Sequence record: PQ511148.1
Length of the DNA stretch: 64,000 bases
Direction: 5' to 3' (one strand)
Source: Escherichia phage NHEP10
The notes under the pieces were generated by a model. That model was not told the DNA's origin and ran no database searches. It saw only the letters and a list, made by a program, of their open reading frames with translations. Shown here piece by piece: positions 37,429 to 37,506 of this stretch (its first letter is position 1; every line of letters starts with the position of its first letter). Position numbers and translations under genes: made by a program.

Positions 37429-37456
37429 TTAATTTCCTTTAGACGAGTTATTGTCT
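37429..37456 (-). promoter_or_regulatory. gp43 translational operator (hairpin with loop AAUAACUC plus SD)
   Basis: mRNA reads AGAC-AAUAACUC-GUCU then AAAGGAAAUUAA-AUG; the 8-nt loop equals my recollection of the T4 gene 43 operator loop. Confidence 0.6.
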
Positions 37457-37486
37457 TTTGTTTGTTGATGAACTTATTATACTCCA

Positions 37487-37506
37487 AATGGGACCGAAGT
37501 CCCATT
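37487..37506 (-). terminator. UUCG-tetraloop hairpin between regA and gene 43
   Basis: Transcript AAUGGGAC-UUCG-GUCCCAUU directly after the regA stop; weak U-run (UUUGG). Confidence 0.45.

Follow-up and report, generated by a model that had tools for sequence, protein, structure and literature searches.

The RB69 gene 43 operator in Escherichia phage NHEP10 and the probable control region around it

Does the short spacer between regA and gene 43 of Escherichia phage NHEP10 encode the site at which a T4-type DNA polymerase represses its own translation, and which other elements share that spacer? [quoted passage not shown] An eight-nucleotide loop and an overlap with the ribosome binding site are likewise given for this operator hairpin in Gold's memoir (PMC4661202). 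Both T4 and RB69 polymerases are RNA-binding autogenous repressors, although their specificities differ (Borjac-Natour et al., PMC535899). The window analysed here is the whole 64,000-nucleotide stretch of record PQ511148.1. Coordinates are given on its plus strand, and the regA-43 features (Table 1) all lie on the minus strand.

By sequence, the window is that of an RB69-type T4-like phage closely related to RB69. A query of 401 nt spanning the junction matched 160 phage records, with Escherichia phage 308Ecol101PP 100% and RB69 99.5% identical, and every base of the 81-nt regA-43 spacer is the same as in RB69 (AY303349). The encoded polymerase matches RB69 polymerase chains in the PDB over its full length (e.g. 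1clq, 1ig9), and 542 of the 543 residues compared with RB69 gp43 (residues 1-543) are identical. The sole difference within these residues is at position 336, which is glycine here and alanine in RB69 (window positions approximately 36423-36421). The RB69 record is without any annotation between regA and gene 43, and an Rfam scan of the region (E-value <=10) returned chance-level hits only, with no family for the operator element. Many relatives have a small extra open reading frame of the 43.1 type (approximately 55-105 codons) between the two genes (L003:689-925, L004, L008, L011, L012, L013, L016). This frame always lies 5' of the hairpin-promoter-operator cassette, which stays with gene 43, and it is absent from RB69 and from the window.

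Table 1. Features of the regA-43 junction, and C(UUCG)G hairpin loops throughout the window.
Feature	Position	Strand	Basis
regA (translational repressor), upstream gene	37510..37887	-	125-codon open reading frame with translation; RegA in RB69 and about 150 related records
regA stop codon TAA	37512-37510	-	Sequence
GC-rich hairpin AAUGGGAC-UUCG-GUCCCAUU with C(UUCG)G tetraloop	37487..37506	-	Fold, 8 bp; GC hairpin at this place in nearly all relatives
Candidate degenerate MotA box TGGGACTTCG, promoter -35 to -26, inside the UUCG hairpin	37495..37504	-	Alignment on the -10; inferred
GGAG, promoter -16 to -13	37485-37482	-	Precedes TATAAT; UGGAG follows the UUCG hairpin
TATAAT, putative -10 of the P43 counterpart	37476..37481	-	Alignment with T4 P43
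Predicted P43-type transcription start, 5-7 nt after the -10	37469..37471	-	Homology with the mapped T4 start
A/C-rich stretch, 19 nt, between TATAAT and operator hairpin		-	Sequence
Operator hairpin: AGAC (37456-37453), loop AAUAACUC (37452-37445), GUCU (37444-37441)	37441..37456	-	Sequence, fold, RB69 identity, literature, covariation over 17 distinct homologues
Single-stranded 3' part of the operator / ribosome binding site AAAGGAAAUUAA	37429..37440	-	Sequence and literature
Shine-Dalgarno AAGGA	37439-37435	-	Sequence
Gene 43 DNA polymerase, 903 aa; regulated gene and repressor	34717..37428, AUG at 37428	-	Translation; RB69 polymerase match
C(UUCG)G hairpin loops	1178, 3519, 8132, 10014, 19441, 25059, 26815, 37498, 44871	-	
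C(UUCG)G hairpin loops	13842, 60107	+	

A preliminary description of this DNA had placed a hairpin of the form AGAC-loop-GUCU just 5' of the gene 43 Shine-Dalgarno sequence, and this hairpin is present. It comprises a 4-bp stem and an 8-nt loop, 16 bases in total. Measured from its 3' end, the gene 43 AUG is 12 nt away and the Shine-Dalgarno AGGA core 3 nt away. Its loop had been taken for that of the T4 gene 43 operator, and the same loop is indeed found in T4 (AF158101) and in RB69. The published hairpin-loop sizes are 16 bases for RB69 and 18 bases for T4, with the loop shared (PMC3014915; Uzan and Miller review). The RB69 operator has been studied by binding, crosslinking and repression assays, and the palm domain of RB69 gp43 crosslinks to RB69 operator RNA; the RB69 operator work cited there is that of Wang, Pavlov and Karam (1997), Petrov and Karam (2002) and Petrov, Ng and Karam (2002) (PMC3014915). 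With its boundaries taken from the sentence in that review, and on the basis of sequence identity, the window hairpin is the published RB69 gene 43 operator, which is already known and nothing new. The operator had been called "preserved", and the word is apt because the element is the published RB69 one itself and not a new instance. [quoted passage not shown] Direct comparison gives nine contiguous identical bases, AAUAACUCG, not ten, and the loop-closing pair is C-G in RB69 and U.G in T4.

The folding prediction that had been proposed as a check agrees, as the operator hairpin is part of the minimum-free-energy fold, and its predicted pairing probabilities are 0.87-0.99 whether the transcript is of the P43 type or reads through from upstream. 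In isolation, the hairpin is weak (-3.2 kcal/mol here vs -6.3 kcal/mol for T4), and the z-score of -2.2 obtained for the fold of the 96-nt region is mostly owed to the UUCG hairpin. Could the operator hairpin then be a chance fold in an A/T-rich spacer? The 8-mer AATAACTC is no commoner than chance predicts (4 copies in the window vs 4.08 expected), the gene 43 leader copy being the only one of the four that is closed by a stem, and shuffled sequence yields a degenerate loop motif with a closing stem of at least 4 bp approximately 0.9 times per 64 kb. With about 0.9 such motifs expected per window, the fold by itself was rejected as a ground for significance. The case for the operator is thus made not by the fold but by its position 12 nt from the AUG, its 100% identity to RB69 and its conservation with covariation. 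The comparative data rule out a chance origin, to which next to no probability is given: 43 distinct upstream regions have the hairpin at a matching place with respect to gene 43, their stems differing by compensatory changes, and it is identical to an element studied experimentally in RB69.

These comparative data were drawn from the gene 43 upstream regions of 20 named phages and 80 viral contigs, which gave 73 distinct sequences. A hairpin with an operator-type 8-nt loop was located 9-23 nt from the AUG in 43 of the 73, and the loop is AAUNACU in all but one of these (42 of 43), the remaining one being Serratia phage PS2 with AGCAACCU. Of the 43 AAUNACU motifs near the start codon, a stem of 4 bp or more closes all but one, L031, in which the pairing leaves a 9-nt loop; the selection of rows is therefore not the source of the covariation signal, and selection bias is negligible. 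The 43 hairpins collapse to 17 distinct sequences from at least 12 genera (Mosig-, Tequatro-, Dhaka-, Gapriver-, Marfa-, Winkler-, Teguna-, Moon-, Karam-, Jiaoda-, Gelderland- and Jiangsuvirus, plus contigs). Thirteen of the 17 have the loop AAU[A/U/C]ACUC; of the other four, three differ by a single base and one carries AGCAACCU. Within the loop, A1, A5 and C6 are invariant, variation at positions 2, 3 and 7 is confined to one lineage, and position 4 may be A, C or U. The stems take many forms, namely AGAC/GUCU, AGUC/GACU, AGCCU/GGGCU, GACC/GGUC, AGACC/GGUCU, GGUCU/GGACC, AGUCC/GGACU and AUUCU/GGAAU. The four inner pairs are nevertheless intact in all 17 hairpins, and three of these pairs have changed on both sides in a compensatory manner. 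Over the 17 distinct hairpins, 91.8% of cells are paired vs 59.3% after shuffling, and the covariation score is 0.93 vs 0.28; neither observed value was reached by any of 500 shuffles (0/500 for each). Sliding the partners by one column reduces pairing to 41-46%.

Hairpins near the 5' end can stabilise bacterial mRNAs, which suggests a different function for the element: it might mainly stabilise the P43 mRNA near its 5' end, by protecting it from 5'-end-dependent decay, or act as a structural spacer that positions the ribosome binding site, polymerase binding being irrelevant here. The location is suitable, as approximately 14 nt separate the hairpin from the predicted 5' end in the window and 4 nt separate it from the mapped one in T4. 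A stabiliser, however, would need the stem only, whereas here it is the stem that drifts while the loop is nearly fixed over at least 12 genera. A drifting stem with a fixed loop is the signature of a sequence-specific protein site and argues against a plain mRNA stabiliser. The low thermodynamic stability of the hairpin (-3.2 kcal/mol) and the published binding of RB69 gp43 to the operator RNA (PMC3014915) also count against this explanation, which is considered very unlikely.

A protein other than the polymerase could also be the ligand. The leader is A/U-rich, with AAUAA in the loop and a AAAUUAAAUG start region, and it might be targeted by RegA instead. RegA sites are located at start regions, which here reads AAAGGAAAUUAAAUG for gene 43, and SELEX with RB69 RegA yielded UAA-rich, unstructured RNAs of the AAUAAUAAUAAnA type (PMC3014915). 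RegA sites are, however, described as being without structure, which does not fit the strong stem covariation, and reviews place gene 43 under autogenous control by gp43 rather than under RegA (PMC3014915). The invariant A1, A5 and C6 and the common terminal CUC of the loop are likewise a poor match to a site of UAA repeats. Targeting by RegA is thus judged even less probable than an mRNA stabiliser, and the hairpin is best regarded as the polymerase operator.

The element is not universal among T4-related phages. Among the 73 upstream regions, no operator-type hairpin was found upstream of gene 43 in RB43-like, RB49-like, Acinetobacter, Aeromonas, Vibrio, cyanophage-type and more distant phages. 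This agrees with the remark that some T4-related polymerases are without autoregulation (PMC3014915). In the RB49-like Krischvirus leaders (L018, L076, L077) the AAUNACU hairpin is not recognisable, nor is the RB49-type operator with a -UAAA- loop that is named in the review. Erwinia phage Cronus (L010) has AGCC-ACAC-GGCU approximately 35 nt upstream of gene 43, with a 4-nt loop instead of the 8-nt loop, and AAACUAAGGAA on the 3' side of this operator-position hairpin is conserved. Judging by this sequence, autoregulation of gene 43 in Cronus may be lost or altered. The table of 17 natural operator hairpins could seed an RNA family, and the comparison also shows which T4-like lineages are without the element.

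One naturally occurring loop deserves separate mention. Serratia phage PS2 (L056, KJ025957) carries the operator-position hairpin GUCC-AGCAACCU-GGAC approximately 40 nt upstream of gene 43, and phage SP1 (L152:311-327) and a related contig (L061/L140) carry GUCC-G-AGCAACCU-GGAC at the operator position. A PS2-type hairpin can alternatively fold into a 6-bp stem with a CAAC tetraloop (-8.7 kcal/mol). The loop AGCAACCU is reportedly the "major variant" of the first SELEX experiment of Tuerk and Gold in 1990. Four of the eight loop nucleotides are changed in the major variant (PMC4661202), and AGCAACCU differs from AAUAACUC at exactly four positions. It has -CAAC- where the wild type has -UAAC-, and a 2010 review asked if any natural phage uses the major-variant loop (PMC3014915). 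A limited literature search located no paper on a natural phage with this loop, and searches with the loops AAUAACUC and AGCAACCU returned only unrelated siRNA/miRNA matches. A scan of viral contigs for the PS2-type hairpin gave 50 matches, 48 of which are in unrelated coding sequence and 2 in gene 43 leaders.

Upstream of the operator, a TATAAT element had been noted between the two hairpins of the spacer, left without interpretation like the UUCG hairpin, and it is found there. In T4, gene 43 is served by the middle promoter P43, with a mapped start site at 29933 (Hinton review, PMC2988021 Table 1), and T4 gene 43 expression is highly MotA-dependent (PMC6024815). In AF158101 the gene 43 AUG is at 29893 and the hexamer aligned with the TATAAT of the window is at 29943-29938. 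The start position itself, 29933, is a C, with the aligned TATAAT 5 nt upstream and the T4 operator hairpin 4 nt downstream. The sequence TTTGGAGTATAAT is invariant between RB69 and T4, and the -10 element is conserved across genera when relatives are aligned on it. RB69 has a motA orthologue and T4-like middle promoters with conservation at -13 to -16 (PMC1524935), which are the positions at which GGAG falls here. Because of the T4 start mapping, the invariance of TTTGGAGTATAAT, the MotA dependence and the RB69 motA gene, the TATAAT appears to be best read, through alignment and homology, as the -10 of the RB69 counterpart of P43. Since the T4 start is 5 nt past the -10, P43 transcripts here would begin near 37470, leaving a leader of approximately 14 nt before the operator hairpin, and these mRNAs would be without the UUCG hairpin.

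[quoted passage not shown] A sigma-70 promoter reading was rejected in favour of a MotA-type one, there being no acceptable -35 on the sense strand; a sigma-70-type promoter scan of the minus strand between 37300 and 37700 called none. The MotA box consensus is (a/t)(a/t)(a/t)TGCTTtA, with a spacing of 12+/-1 bp to the -10; among T4 promoters, P46 has an ACTT core (PMC2988021). At -35 to -26, the window has TGGGACTTCG, in which the CTT core is in register (ACTT at -31 to -28) and the rest mismatches the box. In T4, GCTT lies 15 bp from the -10, i.e. 2 bp beyond the 12+/-1 rule. The P43-type assignment is supported by the relatives aligned on the -10, as a clear MotA box (TTTCTGCTAT or TTTTACTTTA) precedes that element by 12 bp in Karam-, Moon-, Gelderland- and Jiaodavirus. 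The RB49-like phages (Krischvirus L018, L076 and L077) have TTGACA-17-TATAAT in place of the MotA-type upstream region, which fits the reported absence of a MotA orthologue from RB49 (Nolan et al., PMC1524935).

The candidate MotA box lies within the second hairpin of the spacer. This UUCG hairpin had been described as directly following the regA stop, and it begins 3 nt beyond the stop codon. Its presence was confirmed, but the gap of "about 35 nt" that had been given between it and the operator hairpin was not, as the measured distance is 30 nt, or 33 nt from the GC core. It is a G+C-rich stem-loop of the kind found in intrinsic terminators, with an 8-bp stem and -11.7 kcal/mol. Nearly all relatives have a GC hairpin here, its stem varying from genus to genus and its loop being mostly UUCG, and the equivalent hairpin is annotated as a putative terminator in the records of 2 relatives. 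On the sense strand, the tail after the GC core is only AUUUGG and lacks the U-run of an intrinsic terminator; for this reason the terminator scan did not call the hairpin on the sense strand, and it was called on the plus strand only. The counterpart hairpin in T4 has a richer tail, UUAUUUGG. The UUCG hairpin is, with moderate confidence, probably a terminator/attenuator or a 3'-end stabiliser for upstream (45-44-62-regA) transcripts.

The position of this hairpin raises the possibility of a dual use. The hairpin DNA spans approximately -37 to -18 of the promoter in RB69, T4, Dhaka-, Gapriver- and Marfavirus, and in all of these the hairpin loop puts (G/A)CTT at the position of the MotA-box core. 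The corresponding hairpin loop of two Acinetobacter phages reads TTTGCTTC or TTGCTTTC, with TTGCTT. As RNA, the element might end or protect the regA transcript, and as DNA its loop might supply the MotA-box core of the polymerase promoter. This would explain a (G/A)CTT-containing loop held at approximately -30 of the -10 element in several genera. The T4 GCTT spacing, 2 bp too long, speaks against a simple version of this proposal, which is tentative and on balance doubtful. If it were true, upstream termination and MotA activation would be physically coupled in one 20-bp element. No description of a hairpin/MotA-box overlap was found in the literature consulted for this region.

Related motifs occur elsewhere in the window. 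It contains 11 C(UUCG)G hairpins with stems of 5-11 bp (Table 1), and CTTCGG occurs 32 times vs 15.4 expected, a count that 0 of 100 shuffles reached. The excess looks like the T4-type habit of intercistronic CUUCGG hairpins. At two minus-strand sites (44878-44832 and 10019-9978), a UUCG hairpin is immediately followed by TTTGCTTTA, the MotA box consensus, and by TAGAAT 10-11 bp further on, so that the combination of stem-loop and middle promoter seen at regA-43 recurs in the window. The MotA-type consensus TGCTTYA-N10-13-TANNNT was found 19 times on both strands of the window vs 2.6 times in shuffles, and the minus-strand copies have a near-perfect -10 (e.g. 52154, 42162, 40856, 33912, 32607, 28738 and 19016). 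A good MotA-type consensus, TGCTTTA-N11-TATATT, is also present on the plus strand at 37506-37531, running antisense into regA. Its complement AAGCAA, just 5' of the UUCG hairpin, is conserved across genera even after a different preceding open reading frame. The antisense -10 is not conserved, and the UUCG hairpin is terminator-like on the same (plus) strand.

Taken as a whole, the 81-nt spacer is read as the standard T4-type polymerase control region in its RB69 version, composed of a terminator/stabiliser hairpin, P43 and the operator, with a probability of about 0.93. Transcripts of 45-44-62-regA would end, be attenuated or gain 3' protection at the C(UUCG)G hairpin. Gene 43 would then be transcribed from a MotA/AsiA-dependent counterpart of P43, a step shown in T4 and proposed here by alignment, with TATAAT as the -10, a start approximately 5-7 nt downstream and an upstream promoter element that overlaps the DNA of the UUCG hairpin. 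Both P43 and read-through mRNAs would carry the AAUAACUC hairpin, adjoining the Shine-Dalgarno sequence. Polymerase not occupied with DNA would bind the hairpin and the adjacent single-stranded ribosome binding site, and in doing so would block the 30S subunit and repress its own translation. This last step is experimental in RB69 and T4, and for the window it is indicated by sequence identity and covariation. Binding of gp43 and repression of gene 43 can accordingly be expected to apply to NHEP10 through its identity to RB69, and the preliminary interpretation of the locus is supported. Beyond what was already known, the analysis adds an explicit reading of TATAAT as part of P43, a table of operator comparison and covariation, and the possibility that hairpin and MotA box overlap. 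For the window itself, the value lies in the annotation of the polymerase promoter, leader and autoregulatory site, where public RB69-type records are blank.

The element is also of historical importance as the RNA target of the first SELEX experiment. The T4 gene 43 operator was reportedly described by Andrake et al. in 1988 and used as the SELEX target by Tuerk and Gold in 1990. Work from the Karam laboratory is said to have shown that T4 gp43 prefers its own operator, while RB69 gp43 binds both. Compared with the RB69 operator, the NHEP10 element is from another isolate and shows no detectable difference, as the 81-nt spacer and the 16-base hairpin are the same and the polymerase differs by 1 residue in 543. 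Compared with the T4 operator, it has the same loop at the same place between the P43 -10 and the Shine-Dalgarno sequence, and it is flanked by the same C(UUCG)G hairpin and the same TTTGGAGTATAAT. The stem of T4 (AF158101) has 5 bp, AGCCU/GGGCU, with a closing U.G, whereas the stem here has 4 bp. The hairpin is separated from the AUG by 18 nt in T4 and 12 nt in the window, and from the transcript start by 4 nt in T4 and a predicted 14 nt or so in the window.

The putative promoter resembles T4 P43 in its aligned TATAAT, its conserved GGAG at -16 to -13 and its location immediately 5' of the operator. It differs in that the MotA-box position is ACTT-centred and degenerate, and its start is placed by homology. 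For the UUCG hairpin, two known systems are relevant. Intercistronic C(UUCG)G hairpins of the T4 type were reportedly described by Tuerk et al. in 1988. The PeSL elements of RB49/phi1 include subclasses with stem-loops between or over the promoter boxes (PMC2839356). The hairpin here shares with these systems a very stable stem-loop that lies right after a stop codon and overlaps a promoter. PeSL promoters, however, are strong sigma-70 early promoters with a TTGACA -35, whereas the promoter in the window has no match to a -35 and would belong to the middle (MotA) class.
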